Assembly: GCF_038025025.1 (NCBI RefSeq) | Contig: NW_027117345.1 | Span: 744,001 to 808,000 of the forward strand | Direction of reading: 5' to 3' | Source of the DNA: Phyllosticta citribraziliensis | Lineage: Eukaryota | Length of the DNA stretch: 64,000 nt | Position numbers and translations under genes: made by a program | Part shown: piece by piece, positions 26,301 to 55,906 of the stretch | Numbering within the stretch: position 1 is the stretch's first letter | Layout of the letters: every line of letters starts with the position of its first letter | The notes under the pieces: generated by a model | The model's input: only the letters and a program-made list of their open reading frames with translations | Database searches by the model: none | Told to the model about the DNA's origin: nothing

Positions 26301-26521
26301 ATTAATTAGCTAATAGTTAATAATTATAAGGTAGAGTAGTAGGAAGGATATAGAGCTATAGCTAACTTAGCCTATAGCTTACTTAGGTATATATACTACT
26401 ATATAACTAAGGTTTTAGCTGTTATAATAGGCGTACACGCGCCTATATAAGCACTAAGGCCAGCATAGATAAACCTAGCGTCACGCAGTTATAAGAAGTA
26501 CAAGCCTTACCTTAGGCAGTA

Positions 26522-26580
26522 ACTAGCTACTATAGCCTAGTACTAGCCACTATAGCCTAGTACTAGCCACTATAGCCCTA
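26522..26580 (+). repeat. 20-bp tandem repeat x3 in C LTR (actagccactatagcctagt)
   Basis: Directly visible; repeated in the 3' LTR at ~47449-47507. Confidence 0.85.
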
Positions 26581-29196
26581 GGTAGATATAGTATAATAGC
26601 CTATTAATACCTTACCTTTATAACTTACCTAATAATAACTAAGGACCCTTATATAAAGGATAAGAGGTAGAATAATATAAAGAGAAGGCTAGGGAATATA
26701 TAGGTAGTAAGTATCTTTTATCTTTTATTCTTTTAACTTATTAGATTTAATTAAGATATATATATATTCTCTAGTAGTTTACCTTTAGCCCTTACCTATA
26801 TAATAAGAAATCTATAAGTTATAATAGATATAAAAAATTATTCTAAGTTTTAGCTCTATCCTATTTCTTTACCTATAAAGGTATTATAATATTTAATCTA
26901 AATAATATTATATATAGCTATAATCTTATATAATACTATTTATTACTTTTCTCTAGTAAACCTAAGTTATCTTTATTAGGTATATTAGTATTATCTAAGG
27001 ACTAAGGAGTATTAAGTATATATTAACTATAGAAGTCTTTAGTTAAGGCTATAAGGTAGTATATAAATATCTAGAAGGTATCCTATTTATAACCTACTTA
27101 AGGGATATTTTAAGTAGAAGACTATAAAGATAGTATAGCTAAAAATAAAGCTAATATATCTAATACTACTAAAGGTATTAGTACTAGTCTATCTACCTAA
27201 TAAGACTTATATAAAGGAACTAAAGATTTATATAACTTTAGACCCTTATTAAATAATAATAAAAGGAGAGCTCCTCCTATTCTTCTTTATAATTTCTATA
27301 TAGTTATAGTAGTAGAGATAAAGGAATATACTTAAAACCTAGGACTAACTTATATAATATAAGCTCTAGTTATAGAGGTATTTATAAAGGTACTATATTT
27401 AGATATTAATTAATTTAAATCTAAGATTATATCCTTAAATAAGCCTTAAGTATAGTAGTAATTAAATTATATATAAAGGTAAAACTAGGCTCTTAAGTAA
27501 ATACTCTTAAACTATACTAATAGCCTAAGGGAAGCCTTAAAGGAAGGATATATTAGGCCCTCTTTATCTAACTAGAACTTAAGACCTATTACCCTTTTAT
27601 AAGATCCTTTTATTAATAGGGTAGTAAGGATTCTTAAACCTTTAATTATCTATATAAGGGAAACTACTATTAAAACCTCTATTTCTTCTTTTAATAAGAA
27701 ATATAAGAGTAGGAAGGTTCTTAATCCTTCTCTTTTTATTAATAGAGAAGACCCCTTATATAAATACTAGACTCTTCTTATATAAAATAAAATTAAATAA
27801 AATTATAATTACTTTATTAAAGGTATAGTAGAGGAGACTAAATAGAATATTATAAAATATATTATCTCCTATATTAGTAGAGAAGTCTTATAATACTTAA
27901 TTCCTTTTCTTACTTCTTATATAAAGGCTAATAAAATTACTCTAAATAAGAATATCTTTAAATTCCTAGATAATCTCCTCTAGAGTCTATATAAGTATAA
28001 GGATATAAAGAAGTAGTTATACTTACTTATATACTATATTCCTATAGACCTTTAGAAGTTTTAATCTAACTTTATATAATTAGCCTTAGATATAGATCTT
28101 CTCTAAGAATAATAGAAAGAGGATTTTTATAATATAATAGACCTACTCCTTTAAACCTATATAGTTACTATAGAGTAAGATAAGGATATTAACTTTTATA
28201 AGTACCTTTAAAGAGCCTATTCTATTACTTAAAGTCTTAGTAATTACTAATCTAATTATAGAAAACTAATATTTATCTTATATAAGGAATAAGCTAAGAA
28301 GAGATAATAGGAGAGAGTAAAGATAACTACCTTAGGTAGTATAAGTACTTTATCTTCTAGTTATACTTATATATAATCTATCTTAAGGGCTTCCTTATAT
28401 AATATAATATATAAAAGTAAAGTAGAACTCTATATAAAGATTAGACTATATAATTACTATAGCTAATTTAGCTATTTATAGAGATAATACCTATAACTAG
28501 AGATAAAGGTAATAGAGTTAGTAGAAGAAGAGAGTACTAAGAATATTTATATAAATATAGAAGATTAGTCCTTATTAGAAAATAATAAGACCTAGGTAAA
28601 GTTTCCTATCTTAGGTCTAAACTTAGAGTAATATATATTAAGGGTTCTTATATAAATCTTAATTACTTTATTAGAGGTATATCCTTTACTATATAAACCT
28701 TAATTATATCTAATAGCTATACCTTAGAAATTTATACCCTAGTTAATATTAGTACTAGTAGTATAAGTTTTATTTACCTTAAGCTACTACTAACTCTCTA
28801 GTCTATAGGTACTTTAAAAAAGAGAATAATAGATAATAGGCTTAATATTACTAAGTTTAACTAATATATAAATAAGAAAGTTAATTTTTACTTTTATCTT
28901 TAACTCTATTTCTAAGATTAAATAGTTTCTACTTATAATTTTATTTATAATATTAGCTAGAATAATATAATTCTTAGGTAATAGTTTTTTAACTAGTATA
29001 ATATTCTTCTAGACTATAAATAATATAAATTAGTCTAAAGATAGCTACTAGTTAACTAATCCTTTTAATATCTTTTATACCTACTAAAAGTCTCTATATA
29101 AAGTAATATACTATAGAAAGAATACTAAGTAGATATAGACTATAAAGATAAAAACTTTAATAAGTACCTTCTTCCCTTAGTATAGGTTATTAAGGG

Positions 29197-32100
29197 TGTT
29201 ACGCGCTGTAGCGCGCGTAGCTTATATTTCTTAGTATCTAGCATTTAGCATTTACTTCTTCTATGTACACTAGCTACTTCTAGTTAGCTTAAGAGTAGAT
29301 AGTTATTCTATATAGGCTATATAATAACTACTCTTACTCCTTACCTATTAATTATTAGTAGTCTATATTAATTTACTCTACTAGGTACTATAATACTATT
29401 AATAGGTCTCTTACTATTTATAAGAGGATAAGACTTATTATCTATCCCTTATTAATAAGTTTTCTTACTTTAATTATACCCTATAAGGTATTAGGTTAAA
29501 ATACTATAGTTTTAGATATACTAGAAATACTAGATATTATTATTTTTATAGTCTATAGCCTTAGATAAGGTATATAAGTAAGATTCTAGACTAAGATAGT
29601 CCTATTAGTAATTGAGATATAATATCTTATTATATTATATAGTTAATAACCTATATAATAGCTAAGAGTAGCTAGTCTACTAATAGTACTATACTATTAG
29701 CTACTCCTTAGATAATACTAATAGCTAGCTAGCTATCTTTAACTACTAGCCTATTATCTAGCTAACCTATTACCTCTTAGGGTAATAATAATAATAAATA
29801 ACCTACTACTACTACTCTAATAATAATATAGCTCTAGGAGTAGATCCTAGGGCTTATATAGGTAATTTATAATAGGGGTAATATACTAGGCTAAGAGGTC
29901 TAGTACTAATTTACTAATCCTAAGTACTAGTCTAATAATAGTATACTAGATAACTACTATATTTAGTATAGTAGTATTAAGGATAAGCTACTCTTTAATA
30001 GCTAGTTTTAGGGTAATATAGACTAAGCTATATATATCTACTCTTATCTAGCTAGTAAGGCTACTTTAGCTATTATTACTATTAATAATAATAATAGTAA
30101 GGATAAATCTAATAACCCTAATACCCTCTAGGCCTTATTAGATAGCTTATATAGTATTTTAGACTAATAAAGCTATACTATTATCTAGCTTATTACTATA
30201 GATTATATCTCTAGCTCTAGGGTAGCTTTTAAGATATTATTATATATATTCTATTTATTAGCTTATTATACTAGCTAGGATAGCTATATATCTAAAGATT
30301 AATTAATTTATAAGCTTTATAGACTACTCTATAATATTACTATTACTAATATTATAAAGGGCTATATAGAGCTATTAGATATCTTAGGCTAAGCTACTAA
30401 TATTAGCTAGGCTTATAAGTATAAGATAGTACTAATACTATAGATAACCCCCTACTATAAGGGTACCCTTTATATAGCTATACTAGCTAGGCCCTCTTAC
30501 TAGACTACTCCTACTATTAAAGGTACTACTAGTAGTATTAAATAGGAGTATTCTAATATACTAGGTAATTATAGCTATTAGTATTATAGTAGCCTAGGGT
30601 ACTAAATTAAGGACTACCCCTATAGTAAACCTATATATTACTAGCTAATTTATACCTATATAGCTACTAGTATAAAGGAGGTTACTAAGGAGTTTATAGA
30701 TATAGTTAAGAATAATCTAGGTATTATTATTATTAGTAGAGGTAATATTATAGATTTAGATAAGATATTAGGAAATAAGTAGCCTCCTATAAAACTACTA
30801 TAAGAGGTAATACCTATAAGATAGCTATTAGTTATTTAATATAATTAAGGAATAGAATTTCTAGTCCTTCTTATTACTCTTATACTATATATATCTATAT
30901 ATATCTTAATATTCTACTATAGCCTATTTATATCCTTATTAACTCTAGCTATACTAGTAGCCTATATATAAGCTAGTCTCTTAAGAGTAAACTTATTACT
31001 ACTAGTACTTAGAAGTAATAGTTATATAAGCCCTAGATAATTAGTAACTATACTTATAGCTAGACCTAATATCTTATCTATAAGCTTATAACTAGGTTAT
31101 TATTTAGCTTAGAATATAGGGAGGATTCTATACTTTTTAATTTATAGGCTTCTATAATAATTATCTAAATTAGTCCTTTATATAATTTATTTATTAGCTT
31201 TAAGTATATATACTAGTTTAGTTTTATACTAAATCTAGGCTATATATTATTAAAGATTAGTAGAGTAAAGTTAGGTAGATTATATTAGTATAATATTAAT
31301 TTAAAAGATAATTTTCTAGCTAAATCTTAAGATATTTTAGTTTAGTATTAGGTAGCCTTTAAACTAATTAAACCCTTACTACCTACTTAAATATTATCTT
31401 AGATATTATAATCTAGTATAGTCTACCTATCTATATCTATAGCTAGCCTATTACTACTTATAACTATAACTATAACTCTTCTCTAGACTAGTAGCTAGTT
31501 ATCTAATAACTACTCCTTACTACTATTACTATCTATAAATAATATTACCTTATCCCTACTATAGCCTACTACTATAACTCCTATTAAGATCTTATATTAT
31601 AGTAAACCTCTCTATAATAACTTACTAATCTCTCCTATATATATTAGTACTAAATAAGTTAGCTAGCTATACTAGTTAATATATTATAAGGTAGGCCTAC
31701 TAAGGGAGCTCTCTTAATTATAATACTACTACTAAGTACCTAAAGATATTTCTATTATTAAGGAGACTATAAGTTAGCTTAATAAATAGAGTTAATCCTA
31801 GGTAAGCTTATTAGCTAATATAGTATTAATTATAGCTTTTAATATAGTCCTACTCTAATAATAGCTTAGTACTAAAGCTTATTCTATCTATATCTTTACT
31901 CCTATTAATAATTTAGAGTATACTAAACTTTATTTATTAGAGCCTATCTTATAAGCCTTTAGTACTAGTAGTAATAAACCTTACCTCTATTATACTATCC
32001 CTTATAAGTATTATAACCTTTTAGATATATTTTATAATACTAACCTACTCCTTTAAGCCTATTTATAGACTAACTTCTATATAGAACTAAAGGATAGTAC

Positions 32101-33457
32101 TAAATCTAAAGACCTTAGTTATATACTACTCTAGTATACTAATAATATCTAATTAGCTAAGATTAAGTAGTATATATAGAAGGGTATTAATCTTAGTATA
32201 TTAGAGCCTAGTAAGGTAGGTATAGCCTTATCTATTTTACTTATAGCTAAGTCTAATAGTAGTATTTATTTCTATATTAATTATTATAAGCTTAATAAAC
32301 TTATAAAGAAGGACTACTATCCCCTTCTATTATTAGATAAGATAATTAGCTAGATAAGAGGTACTAAATATATTACTAAGCTTAATATTAAGTAGGCTTT
32401 CTACTAAATCTATATTATAGACTAGTAGACTAAGGACCTACTTATATTCTAGACCTATTATAGTACCTATAAGTACTTAGTTATACCCTTTAGTATAGCT
32501 AATAGCCCTAGTACCTAGTAATAGTTAATTAATAAGTACCTATTCTACTATCTTAGTAAGTATACTACTATATATCTTAATAATATCCTTATTTATAGCT
32601 AAATACTTATAGATTACTAATAGTATATTAGGGAGGTCCTTACTTAGCTATATAAGTATAGTTTATAAGTTAATATTAATAAGTATAAGTTCTATATCTA
32701 GGAAACCTAGTTTTTAGGTATTATTATCTCTACTAATAGTATTTATATAGACCCCTCTAAGATTAATATAATTATATCTTAGGAGTAGCCTATAATAGTA
32801 AAATAGGTCTAGTCCTTTCTTAGTACTACTAATTTTTACTAGTAATTTATTAAGGACTATAGTAAGACTACTAGGCTATTAATATAACTAATATATAAGG
32901 GTACTAATTAGTAGTAGACTAATATTAAATAATAGTTATTTAATAGTCTTAAGTATACCCTTATAATAGTACTAGTCCTTATCTACTTTAACCTATCTTA
33001 TAAGATAGTTATAGAAATAGACTTATCTAATTAGACTAATAGTAGCCTTCTCTCCTAGTATAATAATAAGTAATATCTTTACCCTATTATATACTACTCT
33101 AAGACTATAGTACTAGCTAAGCTTAATTATACTATCTATAATAAGGAGCTCCTAGCTATTATTTATATCTTAGAGTTATAGGAGCCTAATCTTAAGGCCT
33201 ATTAAATACTATTTATAGTATTTACTATAATTAAGTAGCTAACTTATTATTAAGCCTACTAGGCTAAACTCCTCTTAGAATATAACTTTAAGATTATATA
33301 TTACCCTAGCTATACTAATATTAAGGCTAATATACTTACTTATTATCCTTAGGATACCCCTACTACTAATAACCCCTAGTAGTAAATATAATACTAAACC
33401 CTACTCCTAGCTAGTAAGCTCTTAGCTAGTATATATAAGGACTAGAAGGTAGCCCCT

Positions 33458-33491
<34 letters not shown>

Positions 33492-35245
33492 TATTTATAC
33501 TCTAGTAATTACTTATAGCTAATACTATAGATAATACTAAAATAAATAACTAGAGGTATTATACTAGTAAGCTAGACTTACCCTTTACTATTAATAGGTA
33601 GTAGAATATCTTTATAAATAGCTACCTTATTATATCTACTAAACTCTAGCTACTCCTTATCTATTATATCTATAAGTAGCTACTTACTAGCTACTCTAGC
33701 TAAACTTAGCTATATAACCTCCTAGTACCTTAATTTTAGTTTCCTTACCTTATCTTACTTATATCCTAAGTTATAGATAACTATCTAAATTATATCTATA
33801 TTTATAAAGCTTACCTAGTTATTTTAGGCTAGCTATAGCTACTACCTATTCTATTATAGCTATAGTAGTATATTACTATAGACTTTATTAGCCTATTATT
33901 ATATAGTAAGGGTATAGATACTATCCTAGTTATTTATAACTATTTTAGTAAAGTATAATACTTTATTACTATAAATACTATAAATAATAGGACTATAGCT
34001 AAGGCTATAGCTTATATACTTATAGACTATATCTTTACTATATATAGTTTCCCTCTCTCTATTATCTTAGACTATAGTAACTAGTTTATCTCTTACCTAT
34101 AGGAGGGCCTTACTTATATTATTAGTATTAGCCTAAAGCTATCTATTAGCTATTATCCTTAAACTAATAGCTAGACTAAATAAGTTAATTAGGACCTTAA
34201 GAACTACTTAAAATAGTTTATTAGGTTCTATTAAGATAATTAGTAACTACTACTATCTATTACCTAGTTTATAGCTAATAGTATACTATATAAGAGCCTT
34301 AATAGCTACTCCCCTTTTTATATTTATTATAGCTATAAGCTATAATTTAATTTTAATACTAAAGCTACTATTTATAGTATCTATAGACTAATTATAGATA
34401 CCTATTCTATATAACTATAAACTATATAAGCTATTACCTATACTATATAGTAAGTATAGGATAAAACTAAGTATAGTCTTATAGTTATATAATAGTAAAT
34501 AGCTATCTAAGCTAACTACTAGTATTAGGATTATATTATTAAACTAGGTAAATATATATATATCTATATAGACTATATATATATGCTCTATAGCTATCCT
34601 ACTATACTTAATTTTTATAATAATAGTCTATATTAAGTTACTAATATATATAGTAACTAGGCTATACTATAACTACCTACTAGTTTATATACCTATAATA
34701 AATTTAATATCTTATACCTTATTATTACTAGTAATAACCTATTACCTAGCTAATAACTAGCTAATAGCCTAGCCTTATAAGATAATAAGAATAAGAATAA
34801 GGATACTAATTAGGAAGTAGAGGAGATTATAGGCTATTAGATACTAGCTAATAGGAGGCTCTAGTTTAGGGTAAACTAGACTAATTATCTACTAGACTAA
34901 GTATTTTATAATACTAATAATAGTAAGTTTAATAATACTTATAATATTATCTTATACTATTATAAAAGGTACCTAAACCTTTACCTACTAGCTAGTTAGA
35001 CTAGTAACTAAGTAATAAGGATATTACTTACTAGGAGGGGGGGTAGTATTATATACTATAGTATATATAGCTTATATTTCTTAGTATCTAGTATTTAGTA
35101 TTTACTTCTTCTATATATACTAGCCCCTTCTAGTTAGCTTAAGAGTAGATAGTCATTCTATATAGGCTATATAATAACTACTCTTACTCCTTACCTATTA
35201 ATTATTAGTAGTCTGCATTAATTCGCTCTACTAGGTGCTATAATA
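29197..35245 (+). mobile_element. Element A3, full length, 199-bp LTRs, non-matching flanks
   Basis: LTRs 29197-29395 and 35047-35245; PPT (agga + G-run + tag) at ~35033-35046; RT YLNNILIYS at ~32573-32600; chromodomain (WEVEEI.G....FRVNW..Y) at ~34810-34900; near reverse complement of A1; flanks AAGGG and CTATA. Confidence 0.95.
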
Positions 35246-36637
35246 CTATATAACTACCTATCCTAGTATTATAAAGATATAAAAACTCCTTAAGTAATAT
35301 TACTACTAGCTAGCTATAAATTATATAATTAATATTTATAGATAGGGATACTATATCTACTATTAAATAAAGGAGTTCTATAATAAAGACCTAGGCCTTT
35401 TATAACCCCTAGAGATTCCTACTTAACCCTAGTAATACTTAGCTATAGATTTTAAAGAGATACCTAAGGATTAGAAAGGCTATAATATAATCCTTATTAT
35501 TATAGACTAGTTAAGTTAAAGAACCTTTAGCTTACCTTATATAAAGAAGATTAATATTAAAGGAGTTTCTAGGCTCTTTTATAAATATATCTACTATATT
35601 TATAGAAACCTAGAGTTTATCCTTTTAGACTAAGGCCCTTAGTTTATCTTAGCTTTTATAAATAAACTATATAAGCTAACTAGTATAGAATAGTATTTTA
35701 ACTTATCTTATTACTCTTAAACTAATAGTATTACTAAGATTATTAATTAGTATCTTATATAAAGATTAAGACCCTTTATTAACTACTTTTAGAATAATTA
35801 GTCTAATCTTCTACTATTAATAGACCTTATATAAGTAATACTTTCTTATAAAGCTACTAGACTTTTATCTTTTAAGATTAAATTAGGATATTCCCTATAA
35901 ATATATTATAACTAGTAATAATAAATTAAGACTCCCTAGTAACTAGAAAAGATAGCTTATATAGTAGTATAAATACTATAAAAGAGAAGATAAGAAGCTT
36001 TTAATTTTACTAAGAACCTTATTCTTAAATCCTAAGAGTATATATATTAATAAGCTAATAAGTACTATTATATACTAGACTTTATAGTTAGAGATTATAT
36101 CTATATTAAAAAAATAGGATGGTCTACTAATTAGCTAAACCTTAAATTAGACTTCCCTAATACTAGACCTTTTAAGATTATAGGAATAGAAGGACCCTTC
36201 TATATCCTTAATCTTCCCTTATATATAAAGATAGTTAACCTTTTCTATACTAATAGACTCTATAAAGCTAAAATAGAATAGCTTCCTAGTTAGGAATATA
36301 CTAAACTAGAACCTAAAATTATTTAAGATAAGCCTAAGTAGGAAGTAGACTATATTTAAGCTAGCTAAGTCTTATATAAAAAGCTTTAATACTAAGTCTA
36401 ATAGACTAGATATAACTAAGATAATTAGTAGTATAATATAAGTTCTTTTAATAGTATACTATAGAAAATTAAAGAGTTTTACTCTTTATACCTAGCTATA
36501 GTAGGACTACTAAAAAATCTAGAAAAATAGAAGATTACCTTCCTCTAAGAAGAACTATAGATAGAAATAGAAAGTAATAGTAAAATAAGTTACTTAGGCC
36601 TAAAGTAAATATTATAAAGATATAGAAAGTAGACTAA

Positions 36638-38217
36638 TTAGTTTACTATCTACCCTTATATAAATACTATTAACCTTAACTTCTACTCTCTAGTCTCTCC
36701 TTTTTACTACTTATTTCCTACTATCCCTTTCTTTATTTTCTCTATTTACTTCTTCCCTTTTCCCTTTCCCTTCTTCTTATTATAACTATTATTATATAAG
36801 ATAGTTTCCTCTAGCTCCTCTAGCTTATTAGGTAAGAGGTCCTACTTAGCTAAAGCCTAATTAGTATAATCTTTAGGTATAGCTTAGTTATATAAACCTA
36901 GAAACTCTCCTATATAAATCTTATCTTTATACCTCTTATAACAGGTAGGCAGCTTTATACCCTTTAAGTTACTAATAGTATAGTTAAGGTTACCTATACT
37001 CTAAAGGCAGTTAGTATAGTAGCCCTATAAGAAACTAGGTAGGTAGTAATAACTAATAAATATATAAGTATTAGTATTATTATAATACTTAGTATAGCTA
37101 ATAGGATTATTAATTCTAGTATACTAGATAAGAAAAGTATTATATAAGCTAGTATAGGTTTTAACTAATAAGTAGTTAAATTAGTAAGTAGAAACTATAA
37201 TATATAAGTAAGGTATACTATTACCTAGAGCTAAGATATACTTAGTATACTCTTATACTTTAGGACTACCTAGATAAGCCTATATAGTCAGTTAAGATTC
37301 CTAGTATTAGTAAAGTAAACTTACTTATATAATACTCTCTATATTCTTATAGGGAATATAAAGTATTAACTTAAAGTCCTACTTAATAGGCGCCTTATTA
37401 GAACTAACTAGTAATACTATAATATAGATCTTACTATTACTACTATTATATAAACCTATAGGTACTAAGTACTCAGCTACTAGGACCTAATAAGCTATAG
37501 GATTATAATAATAGTGTGTATAAATAGGCTCCTTATCTTCTTCCTCTAAGATAGGCTATATAACAGTAAACTAGTAATAATATAGTATAATAGTAAGAGA
37601 AGTAGACTAGCTAGTAGCAGGCTATATAGCTAATAGTAATAAACCTTATATAATAACTAATAATACTAATTATATAGAACCTAATACTATAGAATAGTAC
37701 TAGTAAAGTAATAAGCCTATAGCTATTCCTAGCTAAATAAGTAAAGCCTAGCCTAAATATATATTTATATAAGTGTCCTCCTCTATAGTTATATTAGTTA
37801 GTAAGATAGGATAATAAAGCAGTAAAATCTAGATATATAAAGCTACTTAGTAACCTAGATAACAATTAGTAATAGTTTTAAAGAGATAGACTTTACTTAC
37901 CTTATATATAATAGTTCTAATAGATACTACTAGCTAAAATAGCTCTCTAAGTAAGTAGTAACTATAATAGATTATAAATAATACTATATAATAATAACTT
38001 AAGTAGATAAGTCTTATATAATAGTAAGGAATCCTAATAGACTAGACTATAATAAGTAATAGGCAGAGCTAGTATAGCTAGTATAGTAGGTATAGAACCT
38101 TCTTTATTACTCTTAGTAGAGTATAGCTCCTTTAAGCCTATATATAATAGTTAGTTTACTAGATTATAGCTAATTTAGACTAGATAATAATATACTTTAG
38201 TAGGGAACTCTAGATAT
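36638..38217 (-). pseudogene. RIP-inactivated antisense spliced gene in C1 encoding a DUF3716-like Cys6 domain
   Basis: Minus-strand 37150-36975 de-RIPs to NAFLIQ.TG....GC.KC......F.SCR.LPGF..GCCANCLW......CT (one intact TGC codon); introns GTAAGT...CTGAC..TAG at 37324-37280 and GTAAGT...CTAAT..TAG at 37900-37855; basic KKGKGKGK tail at ~36750-36776. Start and stop inferred. Confidence 0.72.
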
Positions 38218-38489
38218 AGCTAAGATAGATAGTAACCTTCTATAGGTTATATAGTAATAGAAGATAGTAATAGAGAAAGATAGTTAGATAATAAAGCTAG
38301 ACTAATAATTATACTTTATAACTATATAGAATACTTAAATTACTAAATTACTACTATTATATATTATAAGGCTATACCTATATAAGCACCTATAGCTACT
38401 AATTCCTATAATTTTAGCTTCTCTTTAGGGGGGGCATATTATAATAGGTATATATATACCTATATAAGTACTAAGGCTAGTATAGATAA

Positions 38490-41400
38490 TGTTATAGGCT
38501 AATAGGTCACCTGATTAGTAGGCTGGTTCTAAGTGACTATCTATCTAATACTAAGGTATATAAGTATAGGAGATAAAGCTAAGTAAGAAGGCTATATAAT
38601 AAGGTATAAGTTAAATTAGTAGGGAGTCTACTTAGGAGTATTAATTATAAGAAAATAAAGATAGCTATTTATAGTATTTATATAATAAGATCCTTTTTAT
38701 ATTCTATTATCTAACTTATCTTAGGAATTATAATAGAAGAAAGGTAGGTACTATAAGAGAAGAGATCTTATCTTAATCCTAAATTATATAGTAGTTTACT
38801 AGCTTATTAGTAGTAATATACTTCTTAAAATTAACTACTTAGCTAAGTCCCTACTATAGGTATAGGAGGTTCTATTCTTATTTCTATTATTATATTAGTA
38901 ATATATATATAGGTATTAGGGTTAAATTATCTAAGTAGCTATAGCTCTTAAGGAGTTAGGTAACTTTAGTATATATAGCTTATAGTTATAGCTAGTAGTT
39001 ATAGTATAGGTATACCTAGTACTTAATACTAAGTAGTATTTAATATAATTATAGGTTTTTTTACTAACCTATAATATTACCCCCCCCTAGGTTTAGCCTA
39101 AGGTATACCTATAAGTAAGAGTAGTTATCTTATTTAGGTATTATACCTTAGTACCTTAGTAGGTATAGATTAGGTTTAAGTATTTAACTCTATATAGGGA
39201 GTTAGTTTATCTTAAAGCTTTTATATATCTAGGATACTAGAGTAGGTACTCTAGTAGGTATACCTATAGCTATACCTATAGGTATAAGTCTAGTATAAAG
39301 GCTTTCTACCTCTATTTCTAGCTCTAATCTTTATTACTATACTTATTATACCCTACCTCTTATCTTCTTTAATAAGTTTACCCTTAGCCTATAGTATAGT
39401 CTTAACTAATTAATAATCTAAAGCCTTTATTATAACTAGCTTTACCCTAATTAATTATCCTATAGGTTCTAGTAGTTCTAGTTATTCTAGTAATATAAAT
39501 AGTAGTTTATAAGGTAAGTAAAACCTTATCCTTAAGGTTTAAGTATTTAGTACTAATAATTTATATAGCTAGTAGTAATAGTTCCTCTAATAGCTCTTTA
39601 GAGTTTATACCTTTATATCCTTTAATACCTACTCCTACTAGGTAGCCTTATACTACTAGTCCTATATATACTCTTACTTACTTAGTTACTTTATCTATAT
39701 ATACTATACTATATAACTATACTACTCCTTCTAGTAGTATTTCTACTACTACTTATTATTATCCTTAGGCTTATTAATCTAAGTATATATATCCTAGTAT
39801 TAGTCCTTCCTATAGCTCTATTAGTCTAGTTATAGGCCCTTCTAATTATTTATCTTTACCTTATTACCTTTACTATTACCCCTTACCTATATATAAAGGA
39901 AAGGGAAGAGCTAAGGAAGAGTTTAGTTTTAAGAGTTTTAGTAGGGGTTCTTTAAACTTATCTTTACTAGAACCTAAACTTAAAGGATTTAATAAAGGTA
40001 GTATATATATCCTATACTTAGGGGAGGTTTAGGCTACTTTAAATAAGGTAAGTAATCTATCTATTCCTTTAGCCTTAAGTTATACTAATAGAATTCTAGG
40101 CTCTAGGAAGTAATATTACCTATAGTATATATAAGGAGCTCCTATTATTACCCTATAGCTATATTAGTATTTTTATAATTCCCTCTATTTTAATAAATAA
40201 CCTAGTATATTATTATTTATAAGCCTCTATTATAGCTATTTAGTTTACTAGTATCCTATAGGCTATAGATTATAAGTATTATATATATATAATACTACTA
40301 GGTAGTATTTACTATCTATTTATTAGTTATTACTAGGTCCCTAGCTCCTTTAGTAGTAGCTATAGTAACTATAAGTAGGATAATAATACTTTCTTTTATA
40401 GTATATATAATCCTAATAACTATATTTATAATAGCTAGTATAATCTATTAGGTAAGGTCCCTAATTATTTAGATAACTTTATAGCTAGTCTTAGTAGTTT
40501 ATCCTTAAAGGATAAGCCTATACTAGATACTAGAGCTTCTTTATCTAAAGAGACTAAGGCTAGCCCTACTAGTCTATTTATTAATATACCTTTACCTATA
40601 TATATATTAACTATTCTATCTACTAGTCCTATTTCTACTATATTTACTACTTCTTTACCTAGTAGTACTACTCTTCCTAAGTAGGAGGTAATAGTTCTAT
40701 ATATACCTATAGAACTTCCTAGTTATATAGCTCCTATAGTCCCCTTAATAGCCTACTCTTCTTTATCCTTACCTATACCTAGTAAGTATATTCCTTCTAA
40801 TAAGCTAGGCTCTTCTTCTTTATCTAGTATATCTTCTTTATCTAATAAGTCTAGTAGTAGTAGTACTAGCCTACTAGCTCTAGTATATATAGCTTTTCTA
40901 TCTACTCCTAGTTCTTCTACTACTATACTACTATAGATTTCTAGTCTTAAGATATCTTCCTTATCTCCCTTATTATTACTATTACCTACTCCTATAGTAC
41001 CTATTTATACCTATACCTATATCTAGCTTATATATAGTTCTAGTACCCCTTATAGTTTCCTAGTTAGTTATTTTAATAATAATACCTTTATAGACTACTA
41101 GGGTATACCTCTACTATTATATAGTTTAGGTAATTAGCTTTAGGCTAAGGCCCTTACCTATTAGTCTAAGGCTAAGAGTTTATAGGAGGGGGAGGAGGAA
41201 GAGCCTTAATAGTCTATTTTCTTAGTATATAGTAGGTTTCTCCTAGGGGTATCTTACTTTTTCTAGTAGTATTAGAGGGTATAATTTTAGTTAGTAGCTT
41301 AGAGAGTAGGCTTATTATCCTTTATAGTATCTTTATAATCTAGCTTATATACTACTATATTCTTCTAGTCTTATAAGTATTTTAATAGTCCTAGTATCTT

Positions 41401-44400
41401 AGGAAACTTAGTATAGTACTCTTTAATTTAATTAGAGATACTAACTATATCTAAGGTCTTATACTATATATTATCTTAGTTATATCCCTTCTACTAAACT
41501 TAATACTTTAGGGTACCTTATTTTACCTTACTATTATATATAAAGTTAACTTTATATTCTTCTTAATTCTAGTAGATAGTTAGAGGTTTAAGAATAGGGA
41601 CCTAGCCTAATAAAGAGGGATAAGCCTTTTATAAGTAGTCTATATAGAAGAGGTTTATAACCTTAGTATATACTAGGAGGTCTAGCTTATAGGAGTATCT
41701 CTTTTTCTTAATAATATAGTAGGGCCCTTAGTTCTAGGTATTAAGCTTAATACTAGGTTAGTTAGTACTTATACCTTATATAAAGATATATACCTTATTA
41801 CCTTTCTTAAAGTTAGGTTTTTACTAGAATTAATTTATAGCTTATACTATTTATTCCTAGATAAGACCTAGCTATTATTTAGCCTACTATATACTTTCTT
41901 ATATATATTTAGTAAATCTTTCTATAGTAATATAAGATAGTTTCTCTATAAGTTCTAGATATATAGTATATTTCTCCTAATTAAATAGGAAACTAGGCTA
42001 GTAGCTAAAGATTAACTTATAGGGGGATATACCTATAGATTTATATAGGAGTATAACTTATATAAAGTCTAGTACTAGGAGCCTTTCTACCTAGTTATCC
42101 TAAAAATAGTTAATATATAATTATAGGTATAGGTTAATAACCTAGTTTATAATTTTAGTAGTACTATTTATCTAAGAGTAGTAGGCTAAGGTAAGCTTCT
42201 ATTTAACTCCTATAATTATATATAGCTTATTCTAGAAATCTAAAATAAATTAGGGTCCTTAGTTAGAAACTACTAATTTAGGTATACTATATATTCTCTA
42301 GATATACTAGTAGTATAGTTAGGTAATACCCTTAGTATTAATTACCTTATAGTAGGGAAGGCTAAAGGTTTACTTATTTAACTAATCTATAAATATTAAA
42401 ATAATATTATATCTAGATTTATCCTTAGATATCTCCTTAAAGTCTATAGTAATATACTACTATACCTAGTCTAGGATTAGGAGGGGTTAGAGTAGTTCTA
42501 GCTTTTTATTATAGAAGTTTATATTTCTTTAGTATATATAGTAGGCTTTTATAATATTATTAATTTATTAAGTAATATCTAGCTAGTAGTAGTATCTTCT
42601 TACTACTTCCTAAGTTTTATTTTATCTAGTATATATAAATAAGGGTAATAAGTAAATTTTATTTACTAGCTCTATATATAATATATCTTACTTAGGAACT
42701 ATAAGTTACTCTTTAAAGAAGAGGTAGTTATTATAGAAGGTTTAATCCTTCTTATTAGGTTTATAGGCTTATATATACTATTCTTCTAATAAGGTAGACT
42801 TTTTATCTACTTCTAGTACTCTATTTAGGATTAGGAATAAGCTACTAAAAGTAATATTAAAGGTATTTAGGTTAAGGATCTAGTCTTTAGCTACTAGTTA
42901 TATTATATACCTAGTAATACTCTTATTCTTCTAAATTTATAGCTCTTCTTATTTCTAAATAAGAGTATTAATAATAATATTATCTCTTCCTAGCCTATAT
43001 ATAAATTTAATATAGTATTTAGTAAGTTTCTCTAACTATTAGGCTTATTAAGTATTAAGTTAGTATTTAATAGAGAAGTATTTAAGTACCTAGTAATTAG
43101 TAATAGCTATAAATAGCTAATTTAGGCCTAGGAGTATACTTCTCTATTCTTTAAATCTATATATAATAGTAAGGAACTCCTTATTATAGATTTTATACTA
43201 GAGTTCTATATCTAATATTAATTTAAAGTAGAAAGTTATAGGTCTCTATTCTCTAGTTTCTTAATATTATAATAGGACTCTAGCTACTACTCTATTATTT
43301 ATATCTATTTCTATATATATAACTAGTCTAGAATTATAATATACTATTATTAAGGAGCTAGTTATTATCTTCTTTAGTTATTAGAATATCTAGACCTTAA
43401 AATTATTAAGGGTATAAAATTTCTATTTAAAGTAGAGTTTCTCTAGTAGTCTAGCTATTCTATTATATTTAGGGATAAAGTTTTAGTAGAAATTATAAAA
43501 CCTTAGAAAGGCTTAAAGTCCTTTAAGGGTTATTAGTAGGTTCTATTTATATATAGTAGATATCTTATCTAGATCTATAGAAATTCTATTAGTAGAGATA
43601 ATATATCCTAAAAACTTTATATAGATAATAGAGAATTTAGATTTTTTAATATCTACCTATAAATTAATATATTATAGTTATTTAAGTACCTTCTTAACCT
43701 ACTACTTATATTCTTAAGGGTTCTTTAAGATAATAAGTAGGTTATTATCTATAAAAGTAATAATAAAATTATCTAGGTATAGTATAAGTTCTTTATTAAT
43801 AAAGTACTAGAATAAGGTAGGACTATTATAGAGCCTAAAGAGGAGTATAATATACTTAAAATATCTATACTATATATAGAAGGTTATTAGGTCCTAGGAT
43901 TCTAGATCTATAAGAATTTAGTAAAATACTTATTAAATATCTAGCTTAATATATACTTTACCTTTAGTAATTCTTTAGAGAATTTCTTAGATAAGAGGTA
44001 GAAGGTATAGGTCTTTCTTAGTATAGGTATTTAAATATTAGTAATTTATATAGAATCTCTAGTTACTACTACCCTTCTAGACTATAAGAATTAGTAATAT
44101 ATATAGTATAGTACTTTTAACTATAAAGCCTTTTTTAAGATTTTTAAGGATATACTTCTTTATAGCTTATAGTTATTCTATTATTATTCTATATAAGGGG
44201 CTTAGAGAGAGGGAAAAGGGTTTATTTCTATTAATAATAATCTTATAATTAATACCTAGCTAGTATAGGGGTAGGGTATCTAATTATTATTTAAAAAAGA
44301 TATCTTAGTATTCCTTATACTATAGTAGGAGGTATTTATTAAGGAATTATATAGTTTCTTTATCTTCTTTAAGTAAAGTAAGTTCTTAAATTCTTATATT

Positions 44401-47394
44401 AACTTCTTAAAGAGTAATAACTTAGACTTCTAAAATTTTATTTTATATAAAAAGAGAGTTTAAAGGAATAAATAAAGAGTTAATTCTTAAATTATCTATT
44501 TTCTCTTTTATATCTTTTTAGACTTTTTCTCTTCTTTTTAGGTCTTTTTAATATATTTCTAAGATTTTTCCTTATTAGTATACTATTAAATAAACTAGGA
44601 GAAGTATTTTTTTATATATAGATAGAGCTTTATTATCTTAGCTAAAAAGCTTATATTTTTTATAATCTAGTAAAAGATTATTCTAAGAAAAGAAATATTT
44701 CCTAAATATAAGATTATTATAGCTAATTATTATAATAAAGGCCTATATTTTATATATTTTTTAGTTAAAGGTAATAGTAAGGAAATAGGTATACTTTAAT
44801 TTAATAGCTACTTATCTATTAAATCTTAAGGCCTTAAGTATACCCCTAGTAATTTTATATTTATATATACTAAGGGTATTAAGGTATTATATAAATTATA
44901 GATAGATAAAGTAGGTCTTAAGAGTACTAATATTAATTAGTACTTTAATATAGAGAGCTTTCTTATTCTTATAGATCTTAGTAGGTATAGTAAAGGCTTA
45001 TCCTCCTATAAAATTATTAATTCTAATATTTATATCTTTAAACTAGAGGGTCTTAATTATTATCTCTAAAATAGATCTAGAGTTTAGAGAAGGGAGTTTT
45101 CTAAGTTACTACTCTTAAAGAATTTTTCTAGTTTAAGTATTAGCTTATCTTCTTTAGGCTATATATCTATTTCTTTAATAGAAACTATATAATTTTATAC
45201 CTAGTATCTCTTTTTCCTATAATTATAGTAGGTATCCTTTCTATTATTATTAATAGGCTTCTTAGGTTCCTTAGATTTAGTAGTATATAAGGAAGTACTA
45301 GTATAACTAGATTTCTTAGAAGTAATAGAGCTAATACTAGCCTTCTTTCTAGAATATTCCTCTTATTATTATTTAGCTTTAGATTTACTTACTTATATAT
45401 ATAAAGCTTAATAGTCCTTTAGGTTATATATAATAGTAGATACCTTATTAATATAGTCCTAGAATTTAATATAGTTATTATCCTTATAGAGTATTATATA
45501 TATTTTTAATTAAGGGTTTAAAGAGGTATAAAACTCTTCCTTCTATTAAGACTAGGGTAGGTCTATATTAAGGGCTAGAGCTATAAATTTAGTAATATAT
45601 AATTAGAAATTATTATTAATATAGAAGTAGAGGTATTAAAGGCTATCCTTAGCTTTCTTTCTTTTAAAGGGATTATTAAACTTATCCCCTAAAAAGGTAT
45701 ATAAATTAGTATTAGTAATAAGTAATTATTCTTTTTTTTTAGTATTAAGGAATAGAAGAAGGTAATTAGCTACTTTATTATTTATTCTAAATATAATATA
45801 TACTATAATTACTATCTTAGTATCTATAGGGTTATTTAAAATAAATTAATTATAGTTAGTCTAAATTTTATTCTTAACTTAATAGAGCTAGATCTAGTAC
45901 TTAGGTACTTTTCTATTTATAAGGAGAGGTAGATCTAGGATTTTAATATAGTACTTCTAAATAGGCTAGCTAATAGTAGTATAAACTAAATTATAGGAGA
46001 ATATAGTTTCTTTATAAGATAAGTATTTATAGTAGGTTTATTCTTTAATAATTTTATCTATTATATAGACTAATAGGATTATTAAAATCTTATTCCTATA
46101 GTAGTCTATAAACTATTTATAATAGGAGATTACTCCTTCTATAGTAGCTACTTAATACTTCTTATTAAAGAGTAATTTAATAACCTCTACCTTATAAGTT
46201 TTATTATACTAACTCTTACTAGCCTCCTTAGATCTTAAAAGTTTATTAAAGAGTTTAAGAATAACTTCTATATAGGGCCCCTATTCTATTACTATCTTAA
46301 GTAGCTTTAAATTATCTAAATTAACTTTATAAATTTATAAAGGGATAAGATTCTCCTCTAGTTTTAAAGAAGAATTATTAAGGTTTCCTTCTATTTATAT
46401 AGAAGGAATTAAAGGAGTTATAAAAGTTAATCTTATTACTCTATCCTCTTAACTAGATTCTAGATTAGTTATAATTAACTAATTCTTAATTTAGTCTAAT
46501 CTATATAGTATAACCTTATTATTTATAAGGGTTTTAAAGTAGGAGACTACCTATATTCTCTTTATATACTAATCTCTATTTCTTATATAAAGTAGCTCTA
46601 GCTATATACCTAAGGGTCCTCTAGACTTATAGGGGTATCTACTAGTATTTATACTATAAGACTTAGAATAGGGCTTAGCTAACTAGTATAGGTATAATTC
46701 TTAGAATATATATCTAGTATTTTTAGTAGGGGATATTTTAGACCTTTCTAAGTATTAGAAGAGTTAGTATAAGAAAAGATATAGTAACTTAATAATCTTT
46801 ATTTTTCTATTATAGGCTAATAGATTATCTAATTAATAGGCTAGTTTAAAATAATTATCTATCTAATACTAAGGTATATAAGTATAGGAGATAAAGCTAA
46901 ATAAGAAGGCTATATAATAAGGTATAAGTTAAATTAATAGGGAGTCTACTTAGGAGTATTAATTATAAGAAAATAAAGATAGCTATCTATAGTATTTATA
47001 TAATAAGATCCTTTTTATATTTTATTACCTAACTTATCTTAAGAATTATAATAGAAAGAAGGTAGGTACTATAAGAGAAGAGACCTTATTTTAATCTTAA
47101 ATTATATAGTAGTTTACTAGCTTATTAGTAGTAATATACTTTTTAAAACTAACTACTTAGCTAAGTCCCTATTATAGGTATAGGAGGTTCTATTCTTATT
47201 TCTATTATTATATTAGTAATATATATATAGGTATTAGGGTTAAAGTATCTAAGTAGCTATAGCTCTTAAGGAGTTAGGTAACTTTAGTATATATAGCTTA
47301 TAGTTATAGCTAGTAGTTATAGTATAGGTATACCTAGTACTTAATACTAAGTAGTATTTAATATAATTATAGGTTTTTTTACTAACCTATAATA
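38490..47394 (-). mobile_element. Chromovirus element D, full length (8.9 kb), 587-bp LTRs, inserted in the C1 3' LTR
   Basis: LTRs 38490-39076 and 46808-47394; TSD GATAA at 38485-38489 and 47395-47399; PPT complement (C-run) from 39080; RT relic YLDNFII at ~43760-43780; chromodomain (EEY.V.FI....LKY.V.WKGY) at ~41480-41565. Confidence 0.95.
39432..41209 (+). pseudogene. RIP-inactivated antisense spliced gene in D encoding a DUF3716-like Cys6 domain (~556 aa)
   Basis: Exons 39432-39513, 39569-40047 and 40100-41209 join in frame (1671 nt); introns GTAAGT...TACTAAT...TAG of 55 and 52 nt; de-RIPed MASFTPIN start, KGKGRA motif, and AIQ..G......C..C.........PF.SCR.VPGSFGG.CGNCKWD....CS at 40235-40402; Ser/Pro-rich tail. 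Confidence 0.8.
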
Positions 47395-47837
47395 GATAAA
47401 CCTAGTATTATATAGTTATAAGAAGTATAAGCCTTACCTTAGGTAGTAACTAGCTACTATAGCCTAGTACTAGCTACTATAGCCTAATACTAGCTACTAT
47501 AGCCCTAGGTAGATATAGTATAATAGCCTATTAATACCTTACCTTTATAACTTACCTAATAATAACTAAGGACCCTTATATAAAGGATAAGAGGTAGAAT
47601 AGTATAAAGAGAAGGCTAGGGAATATATAGGTAGTAAGTATCTTTTATATTTTATTCTTTTAACTTATTAGATTTAATTAAGATATATATATATTTTCTA
47701 GTAGTTTACCTTTAGCCCTTACCTGCGTAATAAGAAATCTATAAGTTATAATATTAGCTAACCCTATACCTTAGTATCCTTATAGGCCTTATACCTACTC
47801 TACTACCTATCTACTCTATCTATATCGATTTATCTTA

Positions 47838-48797
47838 GATACTATAAAATATAAGTAGTATATGCCGTGTCGTATAATAGTTAGTAATAATCTTTAAGTA
47901 AGATAGAGTCTCTTACTATAGTACTACTCTATATAATAGTCCTAGTAGATACTACTAGTAGGAATAGCTCTCTAAGTAAGTAGTAATTAAGATAGATTAT
48001 AAATAATACTATATAATAGGATAGTAGTATATAAGGATTTCTAACTACTAGTATAGCTTATAGCTATACCTATAGGAGATAAGAGACTTAAAGAGGTATT
48101 AGGGTTAGTTTCTATCTTATATAGCTCTTTTAAGCCTTTATATAACTATTAGTTTACTAGATTATACCTAATTTAGCTAGGATAATTATATATTTTAGTA
48201 GGGGGCCTAGGATATAGCTAAGATAGATAGTAACCTTTTATAAGTTATATAGTAATTAGAAGTAGTAATAGAGAAAGATAATATAGTAATAAAGCTAGAC
48301 TAATAATTATACTTTATAACTATATAGAATACCTAAATTACTAAATAGTACTACTATATATTATAAGTCCATACCTATATAAGCGCCTATAGCTACTAAT
48401 TCTTATAATTTTAGCTTCTCTTTAGGGGGGGGGTATATTATAATAGGTATTATATACCTATATAAATACTAAAACTAGTATAGATAAACCTAGTATTATA
48501 TAGTTATAAAATACTAGCTATAGCTTAGGCTAATACTAGCTACTATAGCTTTAGGCTAATATATTATAATAACCTATTAATACCTTACCTTTAGATTAAT
48601 CTAATATTAACTATTAACCCTTATATAAGGGATAAGAGATAAGTAGATATAAAGGAAAGGTTAAGAAATAGATAGGAAGTAAGTATCTTTTATATTCTAT
48701 TCTTTTAACTTATTTAATAAAGATATATATATATATATTCTCTAGTAGTTTACCTTTAGCCCTAACCTATAAAATAAGAAACTTATAAGTTATAATA
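47838..48797 (+). mobile_element. 3' remnant of a diverged C-family element (C2) with 3' LTR 48436-48797
   Basis: 47880-48435 aligns with C1 ~37865-38436; G-run PPT at 48424-48433; LTR begins and ends like the C1 LTR but is shorter (362 bp). Confidence 0.85.
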
Positions 48798-49165
48798 TAT
48801 ATATACTTATATAGGTATATCTACTAGTATACTTACTACCTACTATTATAATAGTAAACTATAGACTTAGTATTAACTAAGTAGAAATATATACTTAGTA
48901 TAGAGTACTATCTTATAGCTATAGTTTTTCTATAACCTCTTTTTAGTTTCTAATTTTTTAAACTAGTAATATAAGACTTATAGAACTTAGTAGTCTTAAT
49001 ACTTAAGAATATACTTTACTAAGTAACAGTGCCTAGTATTATAGCATGTGAAGATAGAAGAGCTAGAGGAACATAGATAGGTATTAGAACATAAGATACT
49101 AAATTCTTTACGAACATGTACAACTCAATCCATCCAACTAACCACATCGACTAAACCCCTCGACC

Positions 49166-51801: not shown

Positions 51802-52919
51802 ACCGCCGGGCACGTCAGGATTCTTCGGCGAGGAAAGCAGTCGATTGCCTTTTCACTGCACACGAGGACGACAGCATAGAATTTAAGCACACATATAACC
51901 ATCCAGCCTTGTGTGCGGGGTTAATTTCCCATCCCCTAGCCATGGACAAAGAAAGTAATGGCCTTCAAAATGGCAGGGCGGGATGGGAGTGCCAAGGAGG
52001 CACCTAAAGCGTGAACATGCATATCGTTGGTTCTACAGCAGAAGTTGAATTAGGAAGGTTCTCTTCGGGAGGATTTTTGCAGCCGTGAAGCTCTTGAGCT
52101 AGGGATCCTGCCAGACTAGCGGCTCCAAGCGAGACGAAGAGCCTGGGGAAACGACATGGGTTGGCTTGGAAACGGGCTGGCTGCTAGAGCAAAAGGGAAA
52201 TTACAGTTATAGCCAGTCGGAGGCGATGAAACGGGACAATAAACCAGTAACGAAGCTTTGCCCAAGACTGTGAGTCGGAAGAGTGCGGATGGATAAAGAA
52301 GATGGCTGGCGTGAGGTAGGCTTGGTGAAGTGTTGGGTCGCTTTCGTTGGCATTGGTCGACATTGCCAGGACATGAATTACGAACTACGAAGAAGCGGGT
52401 AAGCGTCCGTGTTTGTCGTGCCGTTGAAGCAGCTGTCGTGCACGTCATCCAAAAGACTAAAATGAGAATTGAGGACGGCGACGGGAGGCGGAGCAGCAGT
52501 AGCGTCGCTGTTTACCTATGCCCAGGCCGGCAACCTTTTTTGTTTTTGATCCCCAAGCTTCGCCTGCTCTATCGACGTTATGGTTAAAGGTTGTCGTCCA
52601 CACCGCCAACTTTGACCTTGTGCCGTCAAGGTAAGCTTGGGCTCCCGAGCCCGTCGACACTGACAAGCCGTAAAGCCAATCTTCGTCAAACTTTTTCCAC
52701 CCGCCGTAGAAGTTCACAGTCTCTCAAGAACACAAGGGACGCACAGACGGATCTGCCGTCCATCTCCCGCAGCCATCCCAGACTGGTGGTTTTTGCGCAA
52801 CAACGCCCCCTTACTGTCCCCTTGTTGCACACTTCTCCGAGAGACAAACACAAGTCGCGTTTAGTGACCGTTGTGTTCTTACTGCGCCCGTGAACATGAC
52901 ATAGCTCCCGCTTGCTCTT

Positions 52920-53987: not shown

Positions 53988-54194
53988 GACGGTGTGAGGT
54001 TGTTTCGGTGTGTGGCGTCGTGATGATGGAGGAGCCAGCCCAGTGCTGTGCCGGCCGAACGCCCCGCCGCCCAAGGAGGAAGGAAGGAAAGGCCCGACCG
54101 CGGCCGCTCGGACCCTAGCAGTCCCATTCGCCGTCCCAGAAATTTTGTGGTCGCAACAAAACACCAAGCCCACGCGCCAGCCATTGCACCCGAC

Positions 54195-55791: not shown

Positions 55792-55906
55792 GGAGACCCC
55801 TCGAGACGCAATCTCCAGATATAAAATAACATTCAATTATCCAGGGTATCAAACGCCTTCAAGTCATGCCAGTTTTCGTGCCTTCCCAATGCTTCTTCAA
55901 TGCTTT

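Follow-up and report, generated by a model that had tools for sequence, protein, structure and literature searches.

The window analysed here, a stretch of 64,000 nucleotides of Phyllosticta citribraziliensis DNA (contig NW_027117345.1, positions 744,001 to 808,000), contains remains of several families of long terminal repeat (LTR) retrotransposons, and in one of them, copy C1 of the family C element, an antisense cassette was recognized on the minus strand at 37372-36746. With a probability of about 0.8 this cassette is the remnant of an accessory gene in a Ty3/gypsy element with chromodomain, inactivated by repeat-induced point mutation (RIP), and the same gene occupies the same place in the element of a second family, D. 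The gene belongs to the cysteine-rich domain family DUF3716 (PF12511); in its intact form it would have approximately 180-240 codons, coding for an N-terminal alpha/beta region, the six-cysteine domain and a charged tail. Both copies in the window are fossils within an AT-rich RIP block and nothing functional is left there. LTR retrotransposons seldom carry additional genes, and what these do is for the most part not known.

The C1 cassette is flanked on one side by the plus-strand pol remnant (35259-36473) and on the other by the polypurine tract (38425), with the 3' LTR behind it. Its minus-strand frame (codons at 38299-3k) reads NTFLI, a stop, YTRINNPISYTKYYNNTNTYIFISYYYLPSFL, a stop, GYYTNCL, a stop and, further downstream, NKKKGKGKGKK in front of the stop TAA at 36748-36746; thus both the cysteine motif and the KKGKGKGK tail, which an original prediction made from the letters of the window had quoted, were confirmed on this strand. 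As it stands, the frame contains 8 in-frame stops in 177 codons. Since its translation carries these stops and stays below the gathering score of PF12511 (22 bits), the locus was filed as the relic of a DUF3716 gene and not as a member of the family.

The identity of the domain was approached through the residues which C1 and D have in common. Eight of them keep the same spacing in the two copies (F0, C3, P7, G12, C14, N16, C17, W19) when TAT or TAC is read as former TGT or TGC, AGT as former GGT and TAG as former TGG. The degenerate DNA pattern of these residues was found at one locus in viral contigs and at 57 loci in metagenome contigs (the latter are designated by L-numbers), and in 44 of the 57 an open frame of at least 130 amino acids runs through the match. 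Most pattern loci share further motifs outside the pattern, namely S-Y-I-N-A-x-L-I-Q-S-R-G upstream, a C-x2-C pair, and R-D-H-A-x-R-C downstream. PF12511 was matched by nine of the ten open reading frames (ORFs) tested (E 1e-9 to 1e-15; the exception was L010) and by all 35 ORFs of an alignment, from which L010 and near-duplicates such as L013, L021, L028, L045, L035, L037, L044, L056 and L057 had been left out.

The window was then scored with profiles of this family in a RIP-aware manner, i.e. every codon received the score of whichever amino acid scored highest among those that its possible precursors before RIP could encode. The first profile, built from 34 unique domains, was run over the 49 kb RIP block in six frames. 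When reversal was permitted only at TpA, D (90.6 bits) and C1 (90.2 bits) took the first two ranks, the next site had 54.5 bits, and the maxima of 100 dinucleotide shuffles had a mean of 47.7 (standard deviation 2.7) with a highest value of 55.9; the next-best site being below this shuffle maximum, the claim that families A and B of the window lack the cassette is consistent with the scores. With any transition reversal allowed the values were 105.0 for D, 94.5 for C1 and 68.7 for the next site. Because the profile sequences had been chosen by the pattern, its eight columns were masked as well: D (52.9) and C1 (52.4) still ranked first and second, and none of the 100 shuffles reached 52.4. A second profile, made from 103 database homologues of the L025 cassette of which only 56 carry the pattern, gave 113.3 for D and 99.5 for C1, with 81.3 for the next site and a shuffle maximum of 80.9. 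The full-length profile scored 101.8 on C1 and covered columns 5-140 of its hidden Markov model at 37357-36953. At the nine strongest profile columns C1 agrees directly in three and by TpA reversal in five, with one unmatched, while the corresponding numbers for D are two, five and two.

The mutations responsible could be followed in other copies of the element present in the DNA sequencing runs X1 and X5. Transitions account for 81 of the 95 differing places in X1 and for 83 of the 108 in X5. In both runs a T>C difference at plus-strand position 37020 restores TGC (Cys) at 37021-37019, where C1 has TAC, and another at 37138 gives GCT at 37138-37136, where C1 has ACT, this codon being the nearly invariant Ala of the N-A-x-L-I-Q block (the codon readings come from the best-supported 40 of 138 differences, on short contigs from two organisms). 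The gene was destroyed by C-to-T and G-to-A mutation, and less mutated copies hold the codons which the RIP-aware reading had predicted.

Position and orientation agree in the two families. As originally claimed, the cassette runs antisense to pol in the interval between pol and the polypurine tract, both in C1 (pol on the plus strand) and in D (pol on the minus strand). In C1 the region 35259-36473 gave a RIP-aware score of 394 with residues 819-1216 of the L006 pol and of 348 with residues 620-1031 of the L025 pol, at a background of at most 82, whereas plain tblastn reached only E 0.045. The family D element is complete, bordered by two LTRs and a target duplication of 5 bp (GATAA), and the alignment of its pol to that of an intact chromovirus covers residues 164-1257 of the latter. 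In D the order is pol end at 41335, cassette at 39980-40522 and polypurine tract at about 39079, and the D cassette sits inside the LTR-bounded element. This element was inserted about 1.7 kb from the C1 cassette. The lengths of the LTRs are exactly as predicted (407 bp in family C, 26420-26826, and 587 bp in family D, 38490-39076), and their termini are alike (TGTTATA...).

Intact relatives of these elements were found among the metagenome loci, of which L006a and L006b are two elements on one contig. The pol of L006a, L006b, L037, L025 and L022 includes RVT_1, RNase H and integrase, and in all but L022 a chromodomain; in each of the five an antisense DUF3716 gene is located just downstream of pol. 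The pol ORF of L006a (884-4747) comprises RVT_1, RNase H, Integrase_H2C2, rve and Chromo, and on the opposite strand the cassette starts with an ATG at 5418, about 90 bp downstream of a TATA-like box near 5505, with a polypurine tract and an LTR upstream of this promoter. Its first exon has 89 codons, the intron of 46 nt (GTACGT...CTAAC...CAG) spans 5151-5106, and the second exon runs to the stop at 4647-4649, thereby overlapping the tail of pol by about 100 bp. L006b, whose pol is 79% identical to that of L006a at the protein level, has an intron of 70 nt at the same place, and in both elements removal of the intron is required for a frame from ATG to stop. The two cassette proteins are identical in 147 of 234 aligned residues. 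The ratio of nonsynonymous to synonymous substitution rates (dN/dS) between L006a and L006b was 0.289 for the cassette and 0.068 for pol; these values are rough, since dS exceeds 1. As the original prediction had suggested for homologues spared by RIP, the ORF is under purifying selection (0.29 against 0.07 for pol) with the intron place conserved, which supports the original view of the DUF3716 gene as a selected part of such chromoviruses. L025 and L022 repeat the arrangement, with the cassette on the opposite strand downstream of a pol that includes a chromodomain in the former and consists of reverse transcriptase (RT), RNase H and integrase, with no chromodomain match, in the latter. L037 is a near-identical copy of L006a. 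Its contig of 6370 bp has an exact terminal repeat of 89 bp (period 6281 bp), and in L006 the first 300 bp recur at a distance of 6281 bp; in these assemblies the two LTRs of a chromovirus were collapsed, so that the contig is circle-like or tandem.

The surroundings of the two cassettes are typical of a RIP block. The G+C content is about 25% at 1-49000 of the window and about 55% at 49000-64000. The AT-rich part consists of nested LTR retrotransposons whose copies diverge mainly by transitions, and the GC-rich part encodes common fungal genes (GH92, AATF, Yju2, Zds and a Miro-type GTPase). The Yju2 homologue shares 95% identity with its counterpart in Phyllosticta citribraziliensis and 91% with that of P. 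citrichinensis, which points to a Phyllosticta-like Dothideomycete as host. The pieces of family C within 26420-48800 form an array of LTR, internal part, LTR, internal fragment and LTR, and 43 bp recorded with the 5' LTR boundary (26422-26464) are similar to the stretch before the 3' LTR; the array and this likeness suggest tandem or recombined family C elements and not a single insertion. The features are collected in the table.

Table. Features of the C1 cassette, of the family C and family D elements and of the C2 fragment (positions in the window)
Feature	Position	Strand	Remarks
C-terminal cassette part (C1)	36746..36979	-	NKKKGKGKGKK tail, stop TAA 36748-36746
DUF3716 cysteine-rich domain relic (C1)	36980..37150	-	RIP-aware profiles 90.2 and 99.5
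Region matching conserved N-terminal family part (KLILY...ILAL...)	37151..37372	-	contains the 45-nt segment; alignment begins at KLILY
45-nt GTAAGT...CTGAC...TAG segment, candidate intron	37280..37324	-	signals read in sequence
46-nt GTAAGT...ACTAAT...TAG segment, candidate intron	37855..37900	-	some 480 bp upstream of the coding part conserved in the family
Family C 5' LTR	26420..26826	+	407 bp, begins TGTTATAATAGG; self-BLAST 26465-26826 with 47392-47753 at 95%
Nested gypsy copy of another family	29204..35253	+	about 6 kb; 98% to the reverse of 2340-8382; splits C1 pol just before integrase
C1 integrase-to-chromodomain remnant of pol	35259..36473	+	RIP-aware Smith-Waterman
Family C polypurine tract	38425..38434	+	AGGGGGGGCA
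C1 3' LTR, first 53 bp	38437..38489	+	38439-38489 similar to 26422-26472; the rest is 47395-47753, beyond the D insertion
Complete family D element in C1 3' LTR	38490..47394	-	LTRs 38490-39076 and 46810-47394; target duplication GATAA
Family D pol (protease/RT to chromodomain)	41335..44508	-	tblastn E 1e-34; RIP-aware score 1128
Family D DUF3716 cassette relic	39980..40522	+	antisense to D pol; RIP-aware 90.6, 113.3, 113.3
C2 fragment	47874..48487	-	homologous to C1 37859-38489 only; without any DUF3716 domain part

Whether the cassette of families C and D was interrupted by introns stands at about even odds. Two introns had been predicted in C1, and the two GTAAGT...YAG segments of 46 and 45 nt, the latter with CTGAC, are indeed present; they are candidate introns, whose removal left the profile score unchanged or lower. 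The competing explanation is a single uninterrupted exon, in which GTAAGT...YAG would be coding sequence or would have been made by RIP from GC-containing hexamers. It agrees with the profile scores: cutting the 45-nt segment changed the values of C1 from 101.8 to 100.9 and from 101.4 to 100.5 in two profile runs, and cutting the corresponding segment of D changed them from 113.3 to 109.1 and from 113.3 to 109.7. Most family members, e.g. L053/L057 and L024, are uninterrupted here, and the distance from the homologous upstream codon to the downstream GCT is a multiple of three in both copies (69 nt in C1, 84 nt in D). Furthermore, the D stretch upstream of GTAAGT is 32 nt long, so splicing would break the frame of D, and D read through gives P.VILIEF.AL, which is like the NPVLVVGGQQLA motif of the family. 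On the other hand, the 45-nt segment of C1 (37324-37280) has a counterpart of 52 nt at the homologous place of D (40048-40099), with GTAAGT and YAG|GCT homologously positioned and the 45 and 52 nt between them poorly conserved; both segments end just before GCT...CTAGG[A/T]AGT, read as A(Y)LGS. The codon phase of GTAAGT differs between C and D, and stops are dense in the C1 segment, with 4 among its 15 codons compared with 5 among the 92 codons that follow. Intron-like patterns are rare as well (13 in 98 kb, both strands), yet both coding-strand GTAAGT sequences of the cassette span start one, and in L006a and L006b an intron with good support lies close to the corresponding place of the protein. 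No contig in the sequencing runs joins across 37324-37280 or 37900-37855, the two presumed RNA runs having yielded only short contigs, 1 and 4 in number; the stretch 37216-37298 is passed over by one DNA contig. The upstream segment was also said to be kept in fragment C2, and this held in part: GTAAGA and TACTAAC are present at its place, but with a 10-bp insertion, and the homology stops before any acceptor.

The original prediction had seen in the cassette a selected three-gene chromovirus architecture rather than a chance capture. An integral antisense gene, intact parallels and selection speak for the architecture itself; a single lineage, or specificity for chromoviruses, did not follow from the data. 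The domain family is large, 1633 representatives of clusters having been counted at E up to 0.001. At the metagenome loci with a mobile-element neighbour its homologues were found mostly outside LTR elements, a result which the original prediction had itself named as speaking against it. A recognisable mobile-element gene adjoins the DUF3716 ORF at 19 of the 57 metagenome loci, and only five of these are LTR elements, four with a chromovirus pol (L006, L037, L025, L022) and one with a copia-like RVT_2 pol (L015). The others are eight loci with a hAT transposase (L003, L005, L039, L041, L048, L053, L056, L057), five with an ORF of OrsD zinc-finger/DEAD-helicase type (L008, L017, L040, L055, L058) and one with NDC10_II and Tc3-type genes (L020). 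The domain is consequently not chromovirus-specific. A tail-to-tail orientation of the two genes is seen at each of the five LTR loci and at six of the eight hAT loci, and the helicase group is mixed in this respect. Three AT-rich loci with pol remnants (L027, L029, L034) depart from the simple arrangement; of the others, some are flanked by non-mobile genes (NLR, HET, LysM) and some are of insufficient length for a judgement.

These neighbours allow a different explanation, namely that the cassette is a passenger which was captured independently and repeatedly, so that no single ancient, co-diverging three-gene lineage of chromoviruses existed. We regard it as only slightly less probable than its opposite. 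Besides the hAT, helicase, copia-like, NDC10_II/Tc3 and chromovirus contexts, it is favoured by REP9, an IS3EU DNA transposon of Zymoseptoria, which in the available text of the source carries two DUF3716 genes (PMC8232023). In the tree of 35 cassette proteins the element type needs 13 changes, close to the mean of 14.3 after shuffling, and the four chromovirus genes are not grouped but need 3 changes, hence the expected co-divergence of gene and element did not emerge. Moreover, the L025 gene is no nearer to the chromoviral L022 gene (49% identity) than to genes linked with a hAT transposase or a helicase (51-54%). Against it, the approximately unbiased (AU) test does not reject one chromovirus clade (p 0.062) in a tree of a short protein that is poorly resolved, with 14 of 31 branches open; the L006a/L006b lineage retains the gene under selection; and C and D carry it at the same place between similar LTR termini. 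Repeated capture followed by retention thus fits at least as well as one ancient acquisition.

Some of these loci deserve description in their own right. The giant ORFs with OrsD-type zinc finger and DEAD/Helicase_C domains (L040:418-4806, L058:3357-8024, L008:4197-8261, L055:1457-3853, L017:3-1337) each adjoin a DUF3716 gene in varying orientation; they may be telomere-linked helicase-type elements, since a DUF3716 protein reportedly binds telomere repeats. L015:491-6303 is an ORF of 1677 amino acids with a copia-type RT (RVT_2) and a DUF3716 gene tail-to-tail at its 3' end, which means that the antisense arrangement is not confined to gypsy. The hAT loci have Dimer_Tnp_hAT, and three different contigs among them (L053, L056, L057) repeat one and the same arrangement, which is what a multicopy element would produce. 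Adjacent genes for two larger DUF3716 proteins, of 347 and 412 amino acids, neighbour a LysM gene (L009:4800-5840 and L009:6599-7834), and this pair forms with L018 a divergent long-branch group in the DUF3716 tree. In the Blastomyces protein P0032 the domain is fused to GCR1_C (PF12550).

Several results weigh against our reading of the C1 cassette as an accessory-gene remnant. When all three minus-strand frames of the cassette were submitted to Pfam with X at the stops, no family was returned, and in a word-based protein search with the X-read frame none of the 68 candidates scored. Since the raw translation matches nothing, the DUF3716 assignment rests on reversal-allowing scores, and with masked columns the margin over other real sites of the window is small (52.4 against 50.4). 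The direct DNA match of C1 and D within the domain (59 bp, 80%, 46.4 bits) is no better than what this C1 stretch gives with an unrelated family (42.8-43.7 bits), and an alignment in the purine/pyrimidine alphabet gave 55 as best value against control maxima of 57-61. The direct similarity of C and D at the DNA level, which the original prediction would have needed, is thus not significant alone; consequently their relation rests on the common profile match, the same place in the elements and the similar LTR termini. Finally, the 5' part of C1 (26827-29203) is devoid of pol or gag signal: the alignment of C1 to intact pol covers only residues 819-1216, from integrase to where the chromodomain starts, and RT, protease and gag, sought in 24000-29204, were not found above background, therefore C1 is an incomplete element. 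It is nevertheless extremely improbable that the likeness to DUF3716 arose by chance, from the many reversals allowed in RIP sequence that is AT-rich and of low complexity: reversals do lift the background to about 45-80 bits, and without them no place in the window exceeds 16 bits, but C1 and D stand 34-36 bits above all other sites and the 100 shuffles with the first profile and 18-32 bits above the rest with the independent one, a pattern taken from C1 and D retrieved a real Pfam family, and less mutated copies have the codons expected.

As regards the product, the AlphaFold model of the L025 cassette has a mean predicted local distance difference test (pLDDT) value of 80.9, with means above 85 in the 10-residue blocks of residues 31-120, and the domain-only model has 87.0. 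In the predicted models each C-x2-C pair begins a short helix. The full-length model had no Foldseek match at E up to 0.001, and a wide VIA search returned no chain at Z of at least 2; the domain alone had no Foldseek match and a best VIA match of Z 2.2. The family profile matched none of the PDB sequences, Zn2Cys6 structures included, and the ESM Atlas offered one weak lead at 0.77. Of the zinc-binding fold that had been anticipated, a confident model with the C-x2-C pairs at helix starts was thus obtained, and a match to a solved fold was not. Family proteins also show a hydrophobic run followed by an acidic Ser/Asp/Glu stretch, e.g. IVVLSSDSSDDD, and a C-terminal N-P-I-V-L motif; the former may resemble SUMO-interaction motifs. 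Recombinant NCU05718 of Neurospora crassa is reported, in the accessible part of the source, to bind double-stranded TTAGGG repeats directly in vitro (PMC4650311), and a single sentence of another paper, of which likewise a part was available, names it as orthologous to PSC58, a DUF3716 protein (PMC10776026). By analogy, the product of the cassette is probably a zinc-binding protein that binds double-stranded DNA.

In active elements the cassette would be transcribed from its own promoter near the 3' LTR, as the TATA-like box of L006a might indicate. An intron in antisense orientation could not be spliced from the sense-strand genomic RNA, and for this reason it would be passed on through reverse transcription. 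For the element, the use of the protein would then lie in the marking or selection of sites in chromatin, or in the control of LTR or host transcription. A wider and rather doubtful proposal is that DUF3716 might be a widespread accessory factor of the mobile DNA of fungi, a small six-cysteine binder of double-stranded DNA with an acidic tail like SUMO-interaction motifs, whose gene would have been acquired or exchanged repeatedly by gypsy, copia, hAT, IS3EU and helicase elements and kept under selection to steer them to, or protect them in, certain chromatin, for instance telomeric or heterochromatic DNA. If this were true, many 'host' DUF3716 genes would be largely element-borne or domesticated copies.

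Compared with known protein families, the relics resemble PF12511 in the order C-x2-C ... F-x2-C ... G-x-C-x-N-C-x-W ... C and in the flanking S-Y-x-N-A-x-L-I-Q-S-R-G block, and differ from it in that both copies remain below the Pfam threshold as they stand. The cysteine spacing of DUF3716 presumably resembles that of the Zn2Cys6 (Gal4-type) cluster, with which it has in common six cysteines and, in the predicted model, two C-x2-C pairs each starting a short helix; the spacing of the third cysteine is different, there is no fold match and no profile match to solved chains, and Zn_clus is not among the 10 Pfam families listed for the aligned ORFs of the family.

With regard to the layout, several mobile elements are comparable. 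The plant LTR elements Grande, RIRE2, Retand and PvRetro13 likewise have an additional antisense ORF between pol and the 3' LTR, and in the available part of the source its conservation is likewise argued to imply a role in the life cycle, its function being not known (PMC7264820); these are elements of plants and not of fungi, and the likeness concerns the layout. REP9, the class II (IS3EU) element of Zymoseptoria tritici, shares the Pfam domain and is similarly a multicopy mobile element with a non-transposase gene, but it is a DNA transposon, not an LTR element, and its genes are arranged otherwise; according to the portion of the paper at hand the REP9-1 gene affected the formation of pycnidia (PMC8232023).

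The nearest counterpart is found in fungi. Zhao et al. (2011, Virology 417:248) reportedly described Boty-like retrotransposons with an additional antisense gene, brtn. In the excerpts available of papers that cite this 2011 publication, brtn belongs to chromodomain elements of the Boty type in Botrytis and Sclerotinia, where its place is between pol and the 3' LTR (PMC8365987, PMC7264820, PMC4227169, PMC5987419). The likeness is considerable, both being chromodomain Ty3/gypsy elements of fungi that carry, after pol and before the 3' LTR, an additional gene in opposite orientation (as in the same excerpts of PMC7264820 and PMC4227169), and C1 displays this layout with pol ending at about 36473, the cassette stop at 36746 and the polypurine tract at 38425. 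The hosts differ, i.e. Botrytis cinerea and Sclerotinia there and the Dothideomycete Phyllosticta here, where both copies are RIP-dead. Botrytis DUF3716 proteins, on contigs of 4-6.7 kb, are 60-61% identical to the L025 cassette, and judged by this resemblance it is plausible that brtn would be a DUF3716 gene; the supplements of PMC8365987 mention neither DUF3716 nor brtn. In the literature searched, with supplements and subscription journals outside the search, no statement was found that the antisense genes of fungal chromoviruses are DUF3716 genes, or that the domain recurs across element classes. The fungal chromovirus with an antisense extra gene is therefore a known kind, and what is added here is that the gene is DUF3716 and that it accompanies other classes of elements too. 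In this way the fungal antisense extra gene is tied to a named, uncharacterised domain family, DUF3716 gains a context as a mobile-element accessory factor, possibly DNA-binding, and a concrete question is raised for the long-known brtn gene of Botrytis.

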